This document shows, one piece after another, positions 2,428 to 10,729 of a DNA stretch of 64,000 nt. A model generated the notes under the pieces. It was not told the DNA's origin. It searched no databases and worked only from the letters and a program-made list of their open reading frames with translations. The stretch lies in sequence record MT446415.1. One strand, given 5' to 3'. Both the position numbers and the translations under genes were made by a program. This DNA is from Escherichia virus TH44. Every line of letters begins with the position of its first letter. Positions within the stretch are counted from its first letter, which is position 1.

Positions 2428-4458
2428 ATGAGTGTAGAAGTAATTTTGGTAACTAAGTACACTATACCTGAACTTATCCAAGCCGTTAATGAAAAACAAA
2501 CGGTTGGATATTTTCCTGCTTGTGGTGTTCTTTATTTTAATAATAGATTTACCCAATTAATGACCTTAGACACAAATGCTACAGAAGTTCCATCAGCACC
2601 TTATACCATAATAGCCGAACAAAACGGTGTTTTATGGGCGGAAGCCGCTTCAGCTTTTGTGGATGCAAATCCGACAGCAGAATGCTTATCACCTGTAGAA
2701 TATATAGATTCGCTATACATGCAAGCTTATGGGGACGCAAGGGCCGCATCCGGTGGCGGTTCGACGGGGCCTAAAGGTGATACCGGTCCAATGGGTCCAA
2801 TGGGTCCTCAAGGTATTCAAGGGCCAATAGGTCCAGAAGGTCCCCAAGGTTTAAAAGGAGAAAAAGGTGATACTGGTCCTCAAGGTCCTCAAGGTCCACA
2901 GGGAGTAAAGGGAGACACAGGAGCAACCGGTTTAACTGGGGCTGAAGGGCCACAAGGACCTATAGGTTTAACGGGCCCTAGTGGAGCCCAGGGTGTTAAA
3001 GGCGATACAGGTCCTCAAGGACCCCAGGGTTTGAAGGGTGAAAAAGGTGATACCGGACCGCAAGGCCCACAAGGAGAACCAGGCACCGGCAATGGCGGTC
3101 TGAAATGGTATACAGAAGATGCTGGTAAAACTTATCCTATTATAGATGTGGACCCAAATTTATCACAAATAGGAATGGGTAATCCAGATGGTGGATACGT
3201 CCAATTAAAATTTATGACCGGAGGCAATAACGCTGGACATATAATGGCTGATGATGGGACCATGACGTTATGGAAAACCCAGCAAAGCACACTCAATCTT
3301 TCGGATAACTCGGCAGCACTGCATAACCATGCCAACGTGGAACTTGCCAATGCTGACATGACGCTTAACATGGATGGGCGTGACTTGACTGTTAGTGATG
3401 TGGATAGTATTCGTCTCCAGCTCAATGCGGACAGAAGCGCTCTGGTGGCGCCGGCGGACGTTGCAAACGTGACAGTATCCACTGAAGGCACTGCACAGGT
3501 CATGGCTAATACTTACATCCAACTGAATGCAGTAAACAACAGGTCTATAATTCAGCTAGACGAATCCGCTATCACCACAAGGTCAGGTCGCTCAAACACT
3601 GAACTCACAGATGCTACATACCGTGCCAGTGCGCCGGACTTAGACGGCCGAATTTCGTTGACTCTGGGTCCGCATGCAAAGTTCCTGGCTACACCTACCA
3701 ATACTGCAATCAATTTTAGTAAAAGTACTGTAACAACCAGAATGCTCATGGATAGTACCGGGATAAACATTGAAACATTAACCGAGGCACCTGTGTTTAT
3801 ACGGAATGTCGATAAGGTGGTTTATACGGCTGATAAAGGTGTGGCTACCATTGGACGGGGTGATTATACACAGGTCGTTGACCAAACTGGGGTAGTAATC
3901 ACTACGGGTGCAGGTAATGTAAGCACTCAAAATGCCACTGGATTTATTAAAGACACTGCCGGCGAGTATCAGTACCGCATCGACAACAAATTGGTATTCT
4001 TCTCTAGTGGGGACATTACAAGAATTAACACAGATGCTTGTGGTGTTGAACTTGATAATGGTTCAGGCATTGCTTATAATAGTGGCACAGGCGAACATAC
4101 TTTTCTTGGCGGTAACGTAGCCCCAGGTGCGGCCAATATAAGTTTAGGTGGAGCTGTTGCTCCGTGGGCTTCAATTTATCTGGATAGTTCTACCCCACGT
4201 GTAATTCAGACCAACACGGCCCACGCGGAAGTCCCAGCTGCTACAATAGCTAAGATGGCTACACTTGTCCCACAAGCTCTGAACACAGCATCCGGTGGCT
4301 TCACAATGGGATATGTTTACGAGGATGTGATTGCAGCTTTAGGCGCCGTCGATGCTGAACTCTACGGGCTTGCATGGATGGAAGGCGGGAAGAAGGTCAT
4401 TAACCCTGTTGCAATACTTGCTATGGAGGCGTTATACGTTCGTAGTAAATTAGTCTAA
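2428..4458 (+). CDS. Collagen-like repeat protein (fibre-like), about 36 G-X-Y triplets plus large C-terminal domain
   Basis: 676 aa ORF with GGAGG RBS; residues about 112-225 are uninterrupted GPQGPQG/GDTGP Gly-X-Y repeats; inserted between hoc and rnlB-side small genes. Confidence 0.8.
   Translation: MSVEVILVTKYTIPELIQAVNEKQTVGYFPACGVLYFNNRFTQLMTLDTNATEVPSAPYTIIAEQNGVLWAEAASAFVDANPTAECLSPVEYIDSLYMQAYGDARAASGGGSTGPKGDTGPMGPMGPQGIQGPIGPEGPQGLKGEKGDTGPQGPQGPQGVKGDTGATGLTGAEGPQGPIGLTGPSGAQGVKGDTGPQGPQGLKGEKGDTGPQGPQGEPGTGNGGLKWYTEDAGKTYPIIDVDPNLSQIGMGNPDGGYVQLKFMTGGNNAGHIMADDGTMTLWKTQQSTLNLSDNSAALHNHANVELANADMTLNMDGRDLTVSDVDSIRLQLNADRSALVAPADVANVTVSTEGTAQVMANTYIQLNAVNNRSIIQLDESAITTRSGRSNTELTDATYRASAPDLDGRISLTLGPHAKFLATPTNTAINFSKSTVTTRMLMDSTGINIETLTEAPVFIRNVDKVVYTADKGVATIGRGDYTQVVDQTGVVITTGAGNVSTQNATGFIKDTAGEYQYRIDNKLVFFSSGDITRINTDACGVELDNGSGIAYNSGTGEHTFLGGNVAPGAANISLGGAVAPWASIYLDSSTPRVIQTNTAHAEVPAATIAKMATLVPQALNTASGGFTMGYVYEDVIAALGAVDAELYGLAWMEGGKKVINPVAILAMEALYVRSKLV
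2761..3095 (+). repeat. Collagen-type triplet (G-X-Y) coding repeat
   Basis: ggtcctcaaggtcc-type 9-bp periodic units encoding GPQ/GDT/GEK triplets. Confidence 0.8.
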
Positions 4459-5135: not shown

Positions 5136-6143
5136 ATGTTTAAGAAATACAACAGCCTTGAAAATCACTATAACAACAAGTTCATTGAAAAGATTCGCCT
5201 GCAAGGCTTCACCAGCGGTGAATGGGTAGCTCGTGAGAAGATTCATGGTACCAACTTTTCATTAATCATTGAACAAGACAATGTGACATGTGCGAAACGC
5301 ACTGGACCTATCTTGCCTGCAGAAGATTTCTATGGTTATGAAATTGTATTAAAGAATTATGCAGATTCCATTAAAACTGTGCAGAAACTTTTGCAGGATA
5401 TTAATTACCAGGCATATCAGATTTATGGTGAGTTTGCCGGGGCAGGTATCCAGAAGAATGTGGATTACGGTGATAAAGATTTTTATGTATTTGATATCCG
5501 CGTTACTAAAGAAGATGGTTTTGAATCCGTCCTGACTGACACCTTGATGGAAGCATTCTGTATTATCCATAAGTTTAAGGTTGCACCGCGACTGGCTACG
5601 GGTAGTTTTGAAGAATTAATTAAGCTCCCTAATGACCTGGATTCCGTTGTCCCTGATTACAATTTCACAGTGGATAACGCAGGATTGACTACAGCAAATA
5701 CCACTGATTTTGCTGCAAAGGCGGAAGGTAAAGTATTCACTGCCGAAGGATTTGTATTAAAACCTGATGTTCCTGCATGGTTACCTAACGGTGAGCGTGT
5801 AGCGATTAAATGTAAGAACTCTAAATTCAGCGAAAAGAAAAAGTCTGATAAACCAATTAAAGCTGCAGTGGTTCTGAGCCAAAATGATATGGATTTACTG
5901 TGGAATTTCACTGATTATGTGACTGTTAACCGTATCAATAATGTTATCAGTAAAATTGGGGAAGTAACACCGAAGGATTTTGGGAAGGTAATGGGGCTAA
6001 CAGTTCAAGATATCCTGGAAGAAGCCGCTCGTGAAGGCCTTGAATTGTCCCTGACGGAAAATCCTGTTGAAGTTAAAAAGCAACTTATTGCAAATGTAAA
6101 AGAAACATTAAGACATGTTTGGATTACATTAATTAGTGAATAA
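5136..6143 (+). CDS. rnlB: RNA ligase 2 (Rnl2)
   Basis: 335 aa; [12 protein letters not shown]...[13 protein letters not shown] (adenylation lysine motif KxHG) ... [18 protein letters not shown] closely resembles recalled T4 Rnl2. Confidence 0.93.
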
Positions 6144-6147
6144 AAAA

Positions 6148-6172
6148 GGGCCGCAAGGCCCTTATTCTTTTT
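6148..6172. terminator. Bidirectional rho-independent terminator between rnlB and gp24 paralog
   Basis: GGGCC-GCAA-GGCCC hairpin flanked by A-run upstream and T-run downstream, between convergent stops. Confidence 0.75.
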
Positions 6173-7445
6173 CCAGTGGTGGAAGTTTAACACCAAGATA
6201 AGAACTCAATTGGCTTTGGTTAGCCATCTTATCCATATCAGCACCGTCAATAATGCGAGCTTCTTTATCGTCTTTAGCAACTGTATAAGGGTTCGCAGTC
6301 AATGCATAACGAGCTAACAGTGCAACCGTAGGCTGTAAGCTTTCAGGGTCAACAATAACCTTGAATTCCCCGACCGAGGTATCACCCTCATCATCAACTT
6401 CGCTAAGACCTTCCGTATAAGGCGCATAATACAAAGATGCGACCGTCTGTCCTTCACCCATATCAGCATTTACACCGACAATAACATAATCACATGGACT
6501 GTTCATATCTGCATAAAGCGGCAAACCGTTCTTCAGAACGCCATAGGCTAATTCATCCTGACCTTCCTTTTTCTCAACCCAGCCAGAAGCTGCTAAAATA
6601 GCTGCACAACGGGAAGAAGCGACTGCATATGTACCAGCAAACGAAGTCTGACGTTGAACTGCAGAGTTCATTTCACACATATAATAATACAGGGTTCGCG
6701 CACGGTCCTGAGCATTATCATATTTCGGGTCAGTAAGATTCAATACACCTTTTTCAGAAACACCTTGCACCTTGAAGCGGGAACTAACAGTAATAAGGGA
6801 TTGTAATACGTCCTTATTAATTTCCTCTGCCATTTGAATGCCGAGAATATTATCAATGAAATCTGTTGCATCGAAACCGTTTGCTTCCAGGTCTTGGGCA
6901 AGCTCAACAGTTAAAGAAGTTTTCAGCTTTCTGGATTTAACTTCGGTCTGCCATTTATCGATACGGAAACCCGCTTCGGCAATTTCAGGATGACCTTTTT
7001 CAAATTTATCAGTGAAAGCTGCATCTGACATCATTCTTATATGACCAGCAGCAATGGCTTCAGAAATAACTTCACCCAAATCAGTTTCGAGAGTCCCGGC
7101 GAATGGTGATGCTTCCAAAACTTTGAACACAACACTTTCAAACTGGAACATATCGCCGACTGCATAAGCTTCGTCTTTGTTTGTAAATTCTGGAATATTC
7201 TTACGCTCGAACATACCAATCTGTCCTGCAAATGTTGCTCCACCGAGATAAGTCATTTTATCATCTGGGTTCAGGACGCGAACACCATACAGCGCAGCAA
7301 CAGGCTGGGTAGTTTTCTGTTCAGCAACGAGTGCTTTAAAAATTCGTTTATTCGTAGCCTGAGTATAAGAAAGCAAATTAGGACGGGCGACCTGGTTGGC
7401 CGCCGTTAATGTTGATTCGTGAATTAGTGCGTTAATCTTTTGCAT
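6162..7445 (-). CDS. Capsid vertex protein gp24 paralog (second copy, more divergent)
   Basis: 427 aa; shares MxKINxL, QPVAALYGV, KSRKLKT, TVELAQDLEANGF, NKDVLQSLITVS, ANPYTVAKDDKEARIID with upstream copy; ATG directly abuts stop of upstream copy. Confidence 0.85.
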   Translation of the reverse strand: MQKINALIHESTLTAANQVARPNLLSYTQATNKRIFKALVAEQKTTQPVAALYGVRVLNPDDKMTYLGGATFAGQIGMFERKNIPEFTNKDEAYAVGDMFQFESVVFKVLEASPFAGTLETDLGEVISEAIAAGHIRMMSDAAFTDKFEKGHPEIAEAGFRIDKWQTEVKSRKLKTSLTVELAQDLEANGFDATDFIDNILGIQMAEEINKDVLQSLITVSSRFKVQGVSEKGVLNLTDPKYDNAQDRARTLYYYMCEMNSAVQRQTSFAGTYAVASSRCAAILAASGWVEKKEGQDELAYGVLKNGLPLYADMNSPCDYVIVGVNADMGEGQTVASLYYAPYTEGLSEVDDEGDTSVGEFKVIVDPESLQPTVALLARYALTANPYTVAKDDKEARIIDGADMDKMANQSQLSSYLGVKLPPLEKE

Positions 7446-8726
7446 TTACGCCTCATAAATGATTGGCGGAAGTTTAACACCGAGCAGATAAGACATATTG
7501 CTCTGACCGGCCATTAAATCCATATTGGTTGCATCGATAATACGAGCTTCTTTATCGTCTTTAGCAACGGTGTACGGGTTAGCTGAAAGCGCATAACGAA
7601 CCATCAAAGAGATAGCTGGCTGCAAACTATCGGGGTCCACAATGACCTTAAATGCGCCTACATGCTCTTCATCGTCTAAGTCCAGGCCTTCGGTATAAGG
7701 AGCATAGAAGATTGAGCCTACGACTTCGTTTCCACCGTAATTTTCTTTAACGCCAACGGTTACATAATCCAATGGACTGTTAACATCACAGAATACAGGG
7801 AGGCCATTAATCAAATAGCCGTACGCTGTTTCAGGAAGCCATTGTTCATCTTCTGGTTTATGTTTCAGCCACCCAGAGCCAGCCAACATAGCAGCAACAC
7901 GGCTAGAGGCAACAACAAAGGTACCGGAATAAGATGTAGTTTTCTGAATCTCGGAGTTCATTTCGCAAACCATTTCATATAATTTACGAGCGCTTTCTGG
8001 TGCAGAATTATATGACAAGTCAATAATGCCATTGTCAGAAACACCAGTTACTTTATAACGCTTGGAAACGGTAATAAGAGACTGAAGAACATCTTTGTTA
8101 ATTTCATCTGCCATAATAGTGGCAAGCAAGTCTTCCAGGAAAGCAGGAGCATTAAACCCATTTGCTTCCATATCCTGAGCAAGCTCAACAGTTAATGCAG
8201 TTTTCAATTTACGTGTTTTAACCGGAGCATTCCATTTGTTAACCTGGAATACAGCATTACTAATCTCAACATCACCGGCTTCAAATTTCTCGGTGTGCGC
8301 CGCATCAGGAACCAAACGAATGGTTAATGCAATAAGACCTTCTTGCAGAACATCGGATAGTACAGTTTCGGTAGTCGATGCAAATGGATTATCAACCAGA
8401 GCTTTATAAACGATATTCTGGAATTTAATGTATTCACCTTTAGCTACGGCTTGAGTTGGGGTTGTAAATTCCGGGATAGTTTCACGGTCTTTAGAACCAA
8501 CTTCACCGCCATAAACGGCACCGGTTTGGAAACTGAATTCATTATCAGGAGTAAGATATTTAACACCGTACAGAGCCGCAACTGGCTGGTTCGTACGTTG
8601 TTCAGCGATAATATCGCGGTAAATCAATTTGGTTGTAGCGCGGGTCAAAGCAACAAGATTCGGGCGGCCCAAGGAGTTGCTGGTAGTGGTAGTTGACTCG
8701 CGCAGTAATTTGTTAATCTTTGCCAT
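7446..8726 (-). CDS. 24: Capsid vertex protein gp24
   Basis: 426 aa; MAKINKLLRESTTT...PNLVALTRATTKLIY closely resembles recalled T4 gp24; HK97-fold relative of gp23. Confidence 0.9.
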   Translation of the reverse strand: MAKINKLLRESTTTTSNSLGRPNLVALTRATTKLIYRDIIAEQRTNQPVAALYGVKYLTPDNEFSFQTGAVYGGEVGSKDRETIPEFTTPTQAVAKGEYIKFQNIVYKALVDNPFASTTETVLSDVLQEGLIALTIRLVPDAAHTEKFEAGDVEISNAVFQVNKWNAPVKTRKLKTALTVELAQDMEANGFNAPAFLEDLLATIMADEINKDVLQSLITVSKRYKVTGVSDNGIIDLSYNSAPESARKLYEMVCEMNSEIQKTTSYSGTFVVASSRVAAMLAGSGWLKHKPEDEQWLPETAYGYLINGLPVFCDVNSPLDYVTVGVKENYGGNEVVGSIFYAPYTEGLDLDDEEHVGAFKVIVDPDSLQPAISLMVRYALSANPYTVAKDDKEARIIDATNMDLMAGQSNMSYLLGVKLPPIIYEA

Positions 8727-8753
8727 TTGCGCTTTTCCTTTTGTGATATACTT

Positions 8754-8761
8754 TATTTATA
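8754..8761 (-). promoter_or_regulatory. Late promoter TATAAATA for gene 24
   Basis: Reverse-strand TATAAATA 28 nt upstream of gp24 ATG. Confidence 0.6.
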
Positions 8762-8767
8762 AAAGTT

Positions 8768-8797
8768 GTTTACAACCAGATTAAGATAAGACATAAT
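8768..8797 (+). promoter_or_regulatory. Early promoter cassette (-35 GTTTAC, -10 CATAAT) for ORF 8838
   Basis: Same leader cataatgattccatactgagtta as cassettes at 47263, 48150, 48677. Confidence 0.5.
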
Positions 8798-8837
8798 GAT
8801 TCCATACTGAGTTAACAAACAAAACCTGGAGTTTAAA

Positions 8838-9119
8838 ATGAACAAATCAACTTTCCTTCTGAACACCTTTAAAAATCTGGAAATTGAAGTTATTGCCTTG
8901 GTCAACAAATACCCAAATGGTGTTAATGGTAATGCTCTGAACAAACTAGTTAAAAAATATGAAAACTTAGCATATGACACTGATTTCTGGTGGAATGGTA
9001 ATTATTCTACTCACACTAAAGATAAAAATGGTAACTGGTTGAAACTTCAAGAAAACAATGTTAACTTCAGAGACCTCATCAAGCGCCGGGTAGAAGTTCA
9101 TTTAAATGGTATGGTATGA
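8838..9119 (+). CDS. Hypothetical protein inserted between gene 24 and gene 23 on opposite strand
   Basis: 93 aa ORF with GGAG RBS and own promoter cassette; flanked by bidirectional terminator. Confidence 0.6.
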   Translation: MNKSTFLLNTFKNLEIEVIALVNKYPNGVNGNALNKLVKKYENLAYDTDFWWNGNYSTHTKDKNGNWLKLQENNVNFRDLIKRRVEVHLNGMV

Positions 9120-9129
9120 AAACAAGAAA

Positions 9130-9152
9130 GGGACCTCAAGGGTCCCTTTTTA
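9130..9152. terminator. Bidirectional terminator between ORF 8838 and gene 23
   Basis: GGGACC-TCAAG-GGTCCC hairpin with flanking A/T runs. Confidence 0.7.
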
Positions 9153-9169
9153 TTTAACTTAATCTAGGA

Positions 9170-10729
9170 TTAAATTCCTTTAACATACACGCGGCGGAAG
9201 TAACCGTTCAAGCCGAGGCTATTAACGATATCCGGCATGCCGTTCTGAATGCGCTTGGTCGGAGCCTGAGCAGCAGGGTCAGCAAACGGGTTGATACCGA
9301 TACCGTAACGGGTTTTGAAGCCCATAACCGGCTGGAAGTTTTTCGGGTCAGAGCCACGCAGCGGGGTCAGTGCAACATATGGTGCGTAGTAGATACCAGC
9401 ATCCATTTCGTTAGCACCTTTGTAACCGATGGTGAAGTAATCGGAGCGAGCATACTGGTCGATATAGACACGGTATTTGCCACCCAGAACACCAGCGAAC
9501 ACAGCTTTAGTGGTGTCAACGTTGAAACCTTTACCCAGACCCTGAGCAGCATAACTAACAGAAGTATCAACAGCGGCCAGTACGTTAACTACGTTACGGG
9601 AAGCGATGATGAAGTTACCTGCACCACGACCGGTCTGACGAGCGATTTCAGCGGCTTCTTTATCAATCTGGAACAGTAAAGCTTTGAAGCTTTCACCAGC
9701 CCAACGAGCGCCACGGATATCAATCGGGTCCTGGAAGTCAAACACACCAGCTTTAGCGCCAACGGTGTTGGTCATACCAGATTTACCAACCTGTGCGGAG
9801 TAGTTAATCCAATCGATAACTTCGCGGTTGATTTCCAGCATAATTTCGGTAGCCAGAATACCACTCAATTCGGCATCAGCATCCATACCGTGAACAGCGC
9901 GCAGGTCCTGTGCCAGTTCGATGGAGTAGCTTGCTTTCAGCTGACGGGATTTAGCTTCGATAACTTGTTTGTCGATACGGAAGCCCATTTCGTTCCACGG
10001 GTTATCCTGGGAACCGTTAAAACCTTCTTGCAGTTCGGCGATGGAGGTAGCCATACCTTCAGCCAGTTCAGCCAGCTGACCAGCTTCCAACAGAGCGGTA
10101 ACAGCAGCGTCAAGTTTAGCAGCATCGGTAGCAGCAGCATCAACAGTTACAGCTTCAACAGCCTGGAAGTGTGCAGCACCGGTAGCTTCGAAGAAGTAAG
10201 AATAAATTTTACCAACTTCAAGAACTTTACCCGCAGCCAGTGCTTCAAAAGTCTGAGCAGCGCCCTGACCAGAGAACATAGCATTCGGAGCATACATCGG
10301 ATGGAAAGCTTCTTTAGCGCCGGCAGCGACAGGGTCTTTACCGTATACTGCACGCAGTGCAAATACCTGACCAGTCGGGTTGTTCAGAGGCTGTACGCCA
10401 CAAATATCAAACGCAATCAGATGCGGGATAGCACGACGAACCATACCCATAACTGCCGGCCCAATCTGAGTTACTGCACCAGAGGTCTGGCCAGCAGCGA
10501 TATTGGTAGCATCATAACCATGGTCACCACCGATTTCAGCTTCGGTCAGGAAAGAACCAAATGCTTCGGAGATTTTTTCGTCACGGTATTCAGGAGCGGT
10601 CAGAATATCTTGTTCCTGGTTTTCAAAGATTTTAGCGATGATAGCTTGTTTAGAAGCACCAACGATTTCAGGAAGAGCTTCGTTTTCCAGCAGAGCGGAC
10701 CATTTTTGAACTAATGCATTCTTTTTCAT
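9170..10729 (-). CDS. 23: Major capsid protein gp23
   Basis: 519 aa; position between gp22 and gp24; shares FRIDKQVIEAKSRQLKA/ELAQDL block with gp24. Confidence 0.93.
   Translation of the reverse strand: MKKNALVQKWSALLENEALPEIVGASKQAIIAKIFENQEQDILTAPEYRDEKISEAFGSFLTEAEIGGDHGYDATNIAAGQTSGAVTQIGPAVMGMVRRAIPHLIAFDICGVQPLNNPTGQVFALRAVYGKDPVAAGAKEAFHPMYAPNAMFSGQGAAQTFEALAAGKVLEVGKIYSYFFEATGAAHFQAVEAVTVDAAATDAAKLDAAVTALLEAGQLAELAEGMATSIAELQEGFNGSQDNPWNEMGFRIDKQVIEAKSRQLKASYSIELAQDLRAVHGMDADAELSGILATEIMLEINREVIDWINYSAQVGKSGMTNTVGAKAGVFDFQDPIDIRGARWAGESFKALLFQIDKEAAEIARQTGRGAGNFIIASRNVVNVLAAVDTSVSYAAQGLGKGFNVDTTKAVFAGVLGGKYRVYIDQYARSDYFTIGYKGANEMDAGIYYAPYVALTPLRGSDPKNFQPVMGFKTRYGIGINPFADPAAQAPTKRIQNGMPDIVNSLGLNGYFRRVYVKGI

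Follow-up and report, generated by a model that had tools for sequence, protein, structure and literature searches.

For large prolate capsids, the reference model is bacteriophage T4, whose vertex protein, gp24, alone fills the 11 non-portal vertices. Some relatives of T4, however, carry a second gene of the gp24 family directly behind the first. Here we describe one such pair, genes 24A and 24B (products A and B), in Escherichia virus TH44 (sequence record MT446415.1), of which a stretch of 64,000 nucleotides, referred to below as the window, was analyzed. We think it likely that the region is a two-gene late operon of capsid vertex proteins, in which B is an old paralog that serves as a second structural vertex subunit. 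The pair itself is already known, having been annotated in GenBank since JS98 and in many records. It appears as "24a/24b" in JS98, JS10, and IME08, as "24(1)/24(2)" in VR7, as "capsid vertex protein I/II" in VR5, VR20, VR25, and VR26, as "head vertex protein I/II" in CGG4-1, and as gp108/gp109 in S16.

T4 gp24 joins a pre-formed gp23 shell at its vertices, and gp21, the prohead protease, trims the first 10 residues off gp24; the N-terminal arms of gp23* and gp24* are ordered on the outer surface after expansion, where they bind neighboring subunits (PMC9958956). The gp23-to-gp24 duplication offers a parallel to the pair studied here, in that a capsid-shell gene was likewise copied and one copy was specialized for the other lattice position, and in that gp23 and gp24, like A and B, are neighbors in the late head cluster (PMC9958956). 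The analogy is not exact because gp23 and gp24 are ~20% identical and have proven positions (hexamers versus pentamers), whereas A and B are 55% identical and any distinct position of B is hypothetical.

The locus in the window resembles that of T4 in several respects, namely full-length homology to T4 gp24 (1YUE, 5VF3, 7VRT), the predicted fold, the predicted N-terminal protease site, the position after gene 23, and the presence of a late promoter. It departs from T4, which has one gene 24 and 55 equivalent subunits, in having a second, divergent paralog that is predicted to be co-expressed with the first. Compared with T4 gp24, moreover, B has a remodeled N-terminal arm and replaces residues that are invariant in other gp24s. 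The annotated pairs of JS98, VR7, VR5/VR20/VR25/VR26, and S16 have the same order, the same tight junction, and the same neighbors (gene 23 upstream, convergent rnlB downstream) as that of the window. Relative to the proteins of JS98, VR7, and Escherichia phage PSD2001, those of the window show 92–98% (A) and 95–100% (B) identity, and nothing of substance is different.

The gene pair and its family

A preliminary description of this DNA had placed two adjacent genes of 426 and 427 amino acids at 6162–8726, with no strand given. Both are present, and both lie on the minus strand, arranged head to tail with 24A upstream and 24B downstream.

7446..8726, minus strand: gene 24A, 426 amino acids, main-type (T4-like) capsid vertex protein gp24
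6162..7445, minus strand: gene 24B, 427 amino acids, B-type ("24b" / "capsid vertex protein II") gp24 paralog

The same description held that the two genes share blocks throughout and are nonetheless clearly diverged, and it proposed a calculation of their pairwise identity. In a BLASTP comparison over the whole length, A and B have 236/428 identities (55%) and 75% positives, with an expect value (E) of 4e-174; differences amount to 44% of residues. The blocks QPVAALYGV, INKDVLQSLITVS, and ANPYTVAKDDKEARIID are common to both proteins, as had been noted.

Both proteins score far above the cut-off of 24.4 bits for Pfam PF07068 (Gp23), at 329 (A) and 325 (B) bits. In a PDB search, T4 gp24 (1yue) was matched end to end over residues 1–424, with E of 1e-196 for A and 9e-148 for B, and gp23 chains were matched weakly (E about 1e-11) in the core region 156–393; the PDB matches were limited to these T4 gp24 and gp23 chains. 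On these alignments, A and B can both be assigned to the T4 gp24 vertex family, closer to gp24 than to gp23. 24A is 70% identical to T4 gp24 and 92% identical to JS98 24a, and 24B shares 55–57% identity with A and with T4 gp24 alike. As the preliminary description stated, gene 24 is single in T4, and it lies at the same locus.

Distribution of the B-type gene

A megablast search with positions 6000–9200 returned 85 phage records, of which the best was PSD2001 (96.8% nucleotide identity), followed by the VR20/VR26/VR25/VR7 group of the genus Gaprivervirus. By nucleotide similarity, then, the window is a Gaprivervirus (VR7 group) isolate.

The distribution of the duplication in related phages, another check that had been proposed, turned out to be broad. 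When B was used as a tblastn query, gp24 homologs were found in 1417 phage records and a B-type gene in 113 of them, the B type being called at E ≤ 1e-180, which corresponds to at least 78% identity among the matches listed. The hosts of B-bearing phages are Escherichia, Salmonella, Klebsiella, Enterobacter, Kosakonia, Proteus, and Yersinia, and among fetched records the gene was confirmed in Dhakavirus, Gaprivervirus, Gelderlandvirus, Kanagawavirus, and Marfavirus. In all, at least six genera carry the pair. B of the window is 78–100% identical to the B genes of five genera and 67–70% identical to those of the FBB1-like group. A search of ~5.8 billion proteins added a deeper B-type group, at 66–70% identity, that includes Erwinia phage FBB1, and a scan of IMG/VR added no lineages beyond those from GenBank.

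The B-type gene keeps constant company. A main-type gene lies directly upstream of B in 33/33 fetched loci, and none of these loci has a B gene without one. A single gp24 gene occupies the locus in T4, RB69, Karamvirus, Jiaodavirus (JD18), Bragavirus, Acinetobacter phage 133, and Krischvirus.

Age and origin of B

The preliminary description called the pair a tandem duplication of the vertex gene. This is correct insofar as there are two intact gp24 paralogs in tandem; the duplication is not, however, lineage-specific or recent, as A is nearer to T4 than to B and B belongs to an old clade. Across genomes, A and B are 55–58% identical, and identity to T4 gp24 is 70% for A and 57% for B. A and B lie at about the same distance from the outgroups Acj133, Bragavirus, and Phi1, and the gp24 of JD18 is 63% identical to A and 64% identical to B.

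Trees were built by neighbor-joining with a simple distance correction and bootstrap, the larger one comprising 52 taxa. A genes group with T4, RB69, and Karamvirus to the exclusion of B with 98.5% bootstrap. In the 52-taxon tree, the B genes, including that of the window, form a clade with 100% bootstrap, and the main-type clade excludes B at 96%. The latter clade contains all B-partnered genes as well as those present in single copy in T4, RB69, Karamvirus/CC31, Merlin, PM2, EcS1, and Serratia 4S. The histories of the two partners do not coincide: the B genes P0009, P0013, P0014, and P0015 form one clade (99%), whereas their partners fall into three main-type subclades. Among main-type partners, P0041 groups with T4/Karamvirus (99%) and P0102 and P0104 group with F48_A (88%).

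Within genomes, nonsynonymous divergence (dN) between A and B is 0.37–0.39, and synonymous divergence (dS) is saturated at 1.5–2.9. Gene conversion and recent duplication were both rejected on the latter ground. A long-branch artifact or a faster rate of B was also considered; because A and B are equidistant from the outgroups, acceleration of B is insufficient as an explanation, and A alone is near T4.

Taken together, the identities, the trees, the saturated dS, and the incongruent partners argue that no recent local duplication produced the pair and that B predates the enterobacterial T-even radiation (T4/RB69/JS98/S16). Since then, B would either have been lost repeatedly, including in the T4 lineage, or have moved as an add-on cassette by recombination. 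A gp23 tree, used as a proxy for the species tree, was star-like, with bootstraps of 8–59%, and did not separate repeated loss from lateral spread.

Several observations bear on recombination at the locus. A metagenome contig (L042, 1067–6046) encodes a gp23 with 96% amino acid identity to that of Klebsiella phage JD18 (L007, 860–3781). At the gp24 locus, the contig has a T4-like A (76% to T4), a B, and an open reading frame (ORF) of 239 amino acids, whereas JD18 has one, different gp24. The vertex-gene cassette has been exchanged between these otherwise close relatives. The single gp24 of JD18 (L007, 2501–3781) has an A-like N terminus and a slightly B-like middle. Its origin as an A/B chimera through unequal crossing-over was nevertheless unsupported, for there is no clear block structure; no segment beyond the N terminus exceeds 90% identity, and the A state is found at 13/19 diagnostic sites. 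Finally, dS between the window and VR5 (L015) is 1.47 for A and 0.96 for B, dS between the window and JS98 (L001) is 1.22 for A and 1.61 for B, and the placement of VR5 differs between the A tree and the B tree. This discordance of A and B dS between genomes, together with the shift of VR5 between trees, suggests recombination breakpoints within or between A and B among Dhakavirus and Gaprivervirus phages.

Sequence and predicted fold of B

Regional identities, given in B numbering for the B class and the class of A partners, show where the two types diverge.

Residues 11–60, N-terminal arm: 77% within B, 80% within A partners, 53% B versus A
Residues 61–150, insertion-domain (I-domain) region: 60% within B, 53% within A partners, 39% B versus A
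Residues 151–230 and 341–427, core and C-terminal parts: 77–83% within B, 79–80% within A partners, 64–66% B versus A

The insertion-domain region is the most variable part in all classes. In the N-terminal arm, the B clade has a signature consisting of LLSYT[QK]ATNKRIFK, G[IV]RVLNP, and MTYxGGAT. Six diagnostic residues (R34, V57, G68, Q246, G332, and Q333) occur in 15/15 B proteins and in 0/37 other gp24s, and B of the window has all six. For three of the six, the residue replaced (L34R, Y57V, and E335Q, the last in T4 numbering) does not vary among the 37 other gp24s, distant outgroups included. The outgroups have the main-type state at about 13/19 diagnostic sites, and the B states are therefore derived.

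A, by the same kind of comparison, carries no mark of its partnership. At an 85% threshold, zero sites separate B-partnered A from single-copy gp24, so A is an ordinary gp24 and not the co-specialized half of a split function. The preliminary description had taken a second vertex paralog to imply either specialized vertices or subfunctionalization. The question is a legitimate one, and both genes look functional; classic subfunctionalization of A, however, is disfavored because of the absence of separating sites.

An AlphaFold2 model of B had a mean predicted local distance difference test score (pLDDT) of 76.8 and a predicted template modeling score (pTM) of 0.72. Its best match was 5vf3_a (T4 gp24*), with template modeling (TM) scores of 0.85/0.88 and a root mean square deviation of 3.5 Å over 414 columns at 55% identity; against gp23* chains, TM was ~0.6. 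B is thus predicted to have an HK97-type fold with the T4-specific insertion domain, as in gp24*. By homology with T4, the changes in B would fall in elements that contact neighboring subunits. B departs from every other gp24 chiefly in the N-terminal arm (11–60) and the insertion domain; because both are contact elements in T4, B probably has altered contacts with its neighbors.

Expression signals of the pair

The signals around the two genes are as follows.

7443..7448, minus strand: TAAATG junction, in which the 24A stop (7448–7446) abuts the 24B ATG (7445–7443)
7451..7454, minus strand: GAGG Shine-Dalgarno sequence of 24B, within the last 24A codons (Y-E-A-stop), 5 nucleotides before the B ATG
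8754..8761, minus strand: T4-type late promoter TATAAATA, 27 nucleotides upstream of the 24A start
6146..6163, no single strand: bidirectional terminator hairpin, G+C-rich, with T-runs on both strands, directly after the 24B stop
9127..9149, minus strand: terminator-like hairpin after gene 23, which parts the gene 23 transcript from the 24A–24B unit
9170..10729, minus strand: gene 23, major capsid protein, the upstream neighbor and an older gp24 paralog

The abutment of the second ATG on the first stop, reported in the preliminary description, is thus exact. The minus-strand sequence across the junction is ...tatGAGGcgTAAATGcaa (tatGAGGcgTAAATG). This tight junction is kept in 11/11 isolate genomes compared and in 6 metagenome contigs; the forms found in relatives are TAAATG, TAATG (1-nucleotide overlap), ATGA (4-nucleotide overlap), and a 1-nucleotide spacer. 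The arrangement of the GAGG Shine-Dalgarno sequence is the same in the 11 genomes.

From gene 23 to the end of 24B, the motif at 8754–8761 is the sole late promoter motif. None lies within 24A, so there is none specific to 24B, and a separate 24B promoter was rejected, since sigma-70-like matches were also not above shuffle expectation. The hairpin at 6146–6163 is the predicted terminator of both the 24A–24B transcript and the convergent rnlB transcript (plus strand). The order of the late genes is accordingly gene 23, late promoter, 24A, 24B, terminator. By their signals, 24A and 24B look like one late bicistronic unit in which 24B is translationally coupled to 24A.

Selection and the protease site

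Both genes are under equally strong purifying selection. Ratios of dN to dS, calculated among orthologs by the Nei-Gojobori method from pairs with dS < 1, were 0.04–0.08 for A and 0.01–0.07 for B, and the ORFs of A and B were intact in every genome examined. No differences between A and B were found in codon usage, GC content, net charge, or pI.

The N terminus of each protein contains a predicted site for gp21.

8694..8699, minus strand: E10–S11 codons of 24A, predicted gp21 (prohead-protease) site LLRE|STTT, as in T4 gp24
7413..7418, minus strand: E10–S11 codons of 24B, predicted gp21 cleavage site LIHE|STLT

E10 and S11 are invariant across 71 aligned gp24 sequences of both types. Because B retains the site, it would seem that B, like A, is inside the prohead when the protease acts.

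Neighboring genes

The gap between gene 23 and 24A holds an ORF of 93 amino acids (8838–9119, plus strand), which is antisense to the late genes and has a GGAG ribosome-binding site and two sigma-70-like promoter matches just upstream (8769–8797 and 8812–8839). The records of VR7 (ORF190c), JS98 (orf173c), and PSD2001 list it as hypothetical; it has no Pfam match, and its position in T4 is taken by the homing endonuclease gene segD. On the other side of the pair, beyond rnlB, the plus strand encodes a 470-amino acid protein with immunoglobulin domains in a Hoc-like position (966–2378) and a 676-amino acid protein with collagen triple-helix repeats (2428–4458). In an FBB1-like contig (L044, 2676–3674), a collagen-like ORF directly follows the B-type gene. 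These immunoglobulin-domain and collagen-like proteins may be head-surface fiber proteins.

Discussion

If the region is a late operon for two vertex proteins, then late in infection one mRNA would give A and B together, the latter by coupled re-initiation. Both proteins would enter the prohead, where gp21 would trim both, and both would serve in the same capsids as subunits of vertex pentamers. B would then act as an accessory vertex subunit whose remodeled N-terminal arm alters contacts with its neighbors, either in B-only pentamers at some vertices or in pentamers mixed with A.

A number of points weigh against this view. The neighbor-joining trees are simple, and alternatives for the branching point of B have 19–41% support. 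In the literature searched we found no virion evidence for either protein, B especially, and a PDB search found neither a B-type chain in solved capsids nor a structure from a two-copy phage. Further, all 55 gp24* subunits of T4 are structurally equivalent (PMC9546572), so it is not evident why a prolate head of T4 size would need two vertex proteins. Nor is B required by a particular gp23 lattice, because the gp23 encoded together with A and B on contig L042 is 96% identical to that of the single-copy phage JD18.

Several other accounts of the pair can be considered. Adjacency, common orientation, near-equal length, and homology throughout are what would be expected if gene 24 had recently been duplicated in tandem in this lineage and the daughters had then diverged and subfunctionalized. 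We consider this origin very unlikely, in that A shares 70% identity with T4 gp24 but 56% with B, A genes group with single-copy T4, RB69, and Karamvirus while B is excluded (98.5% and 96% bootstrap), and the outgroup distances of A and B are about equal, such that a faster rate of B would not by itself suffice. Moreover, dS between A and B is saturated, the pair occurs in six genera or more, and no residue parts B-partnered A from single-copy gp24 at the 85% threshold. That one copy is a decaying pseudogene, or that the pair is an artifact of assembly, has a negligible chance of being right, and nothing was found in its favor. The ORFs are intact wherever examined, dN/dS is 0.01–0.08, and the pair recurs in more than 100 independent genome records as well as in metagenome contigs. 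An assembly artifact, which the preliminary description had named as an outcome that would overturn its claim, is excluded because the copies are strongly diverged (44% of residues, saturated dS) and because more than 100 independently sequenced genomes have the pair.

The remaining alternatives concern what B does. It could have left the vertex role and, with its gp24 fold, now act as an assembly factor, as an internal or minor part of the head, or outside the virion altogether. Such a shift would fit the fixation of L34R, Y57V, and E335Q at sites invariant in 37 other gp24s, the long stem branch, and the lack of virion evidence for B in our searches. It nevertheless seems doubtful to us, as B retains the full-length architecture and the predicted gp24* fold (TM 0.85), core and C-terminal blocks that are 64–66% identical to main-type gp24, late expression signals that are the same as those of A, and a protease site that is meaningful solely within the prohead. 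Somewhat less improbable, if still not likely, is that B serves as an alternative vertex protein or a back-up, with each capsid or each vertex taking the paralog that is at hand or suited to the conditions, conferring robustness rather than a new architecture. Possible conditions for its use would be temperature, pH, gut proteases, or a host defense or antibody that recognizes gp24. As gp24 joins a pre-formed shell (PMC9958956), compatible paralogs could compete for the same holes, and gp24 is known to aid the resistance of the capsid to low pH and digestive enzymes (PMC10580926). The pairing of B with very different main-type partners, and the incongruent trees, would also fit a self-sufficient add-on. 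On the other hand, the invariable position of B behind a main-type gene (33/33 loci) is odd for a self-sufficient substitute, tight translational coupling implies constant joint production and not conditional use, and no gp24-directed defense system was identified in this analysis.

Returning to the two-gene operon with B as a second structural vertex subunit, a stronger form of this proposal is that B builds a defined subset of the 11 non-portal vertices, or takes fixed positions in mixed pentamers, and that T4 is secondarily simplified through loss of B. We offer this tentatively, as a speculation that is unlikely to hold. If it were true, the candidate subsets would be the apex opposite the portal or one of the two five-vertex rings where the cap meets the midsection. 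The pentameric vertices of these prolate heads would then fall into chemically distinct classes. The T4 lineage is nested among B-bearing lineages. In the full-text literature searched we found no virion proteomics of a two-copy phage and no functional discussion of the pair. We likewise found no discussion of the monophyly and age of B, its obligate place behind a main-type gene, its N-terminal arm signature, or the possible secondary simplification of T4, although key genome papers lie outside the coverage of that search and we claim no novelty on these points.

In general, a second, strongly conserved vertex paralog is kept by ~8% of the T4-like records searched, and the relatives of T4 that bear it include the phage-therapy candidates JS98, S16, and the VR phages. 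If both proteins are in the virion, one may ask how two pentamer-forming proteins are sorted on one shell, whether the vertices differ, and whether the single-gene state of T4 is ancestral or the result of loss.

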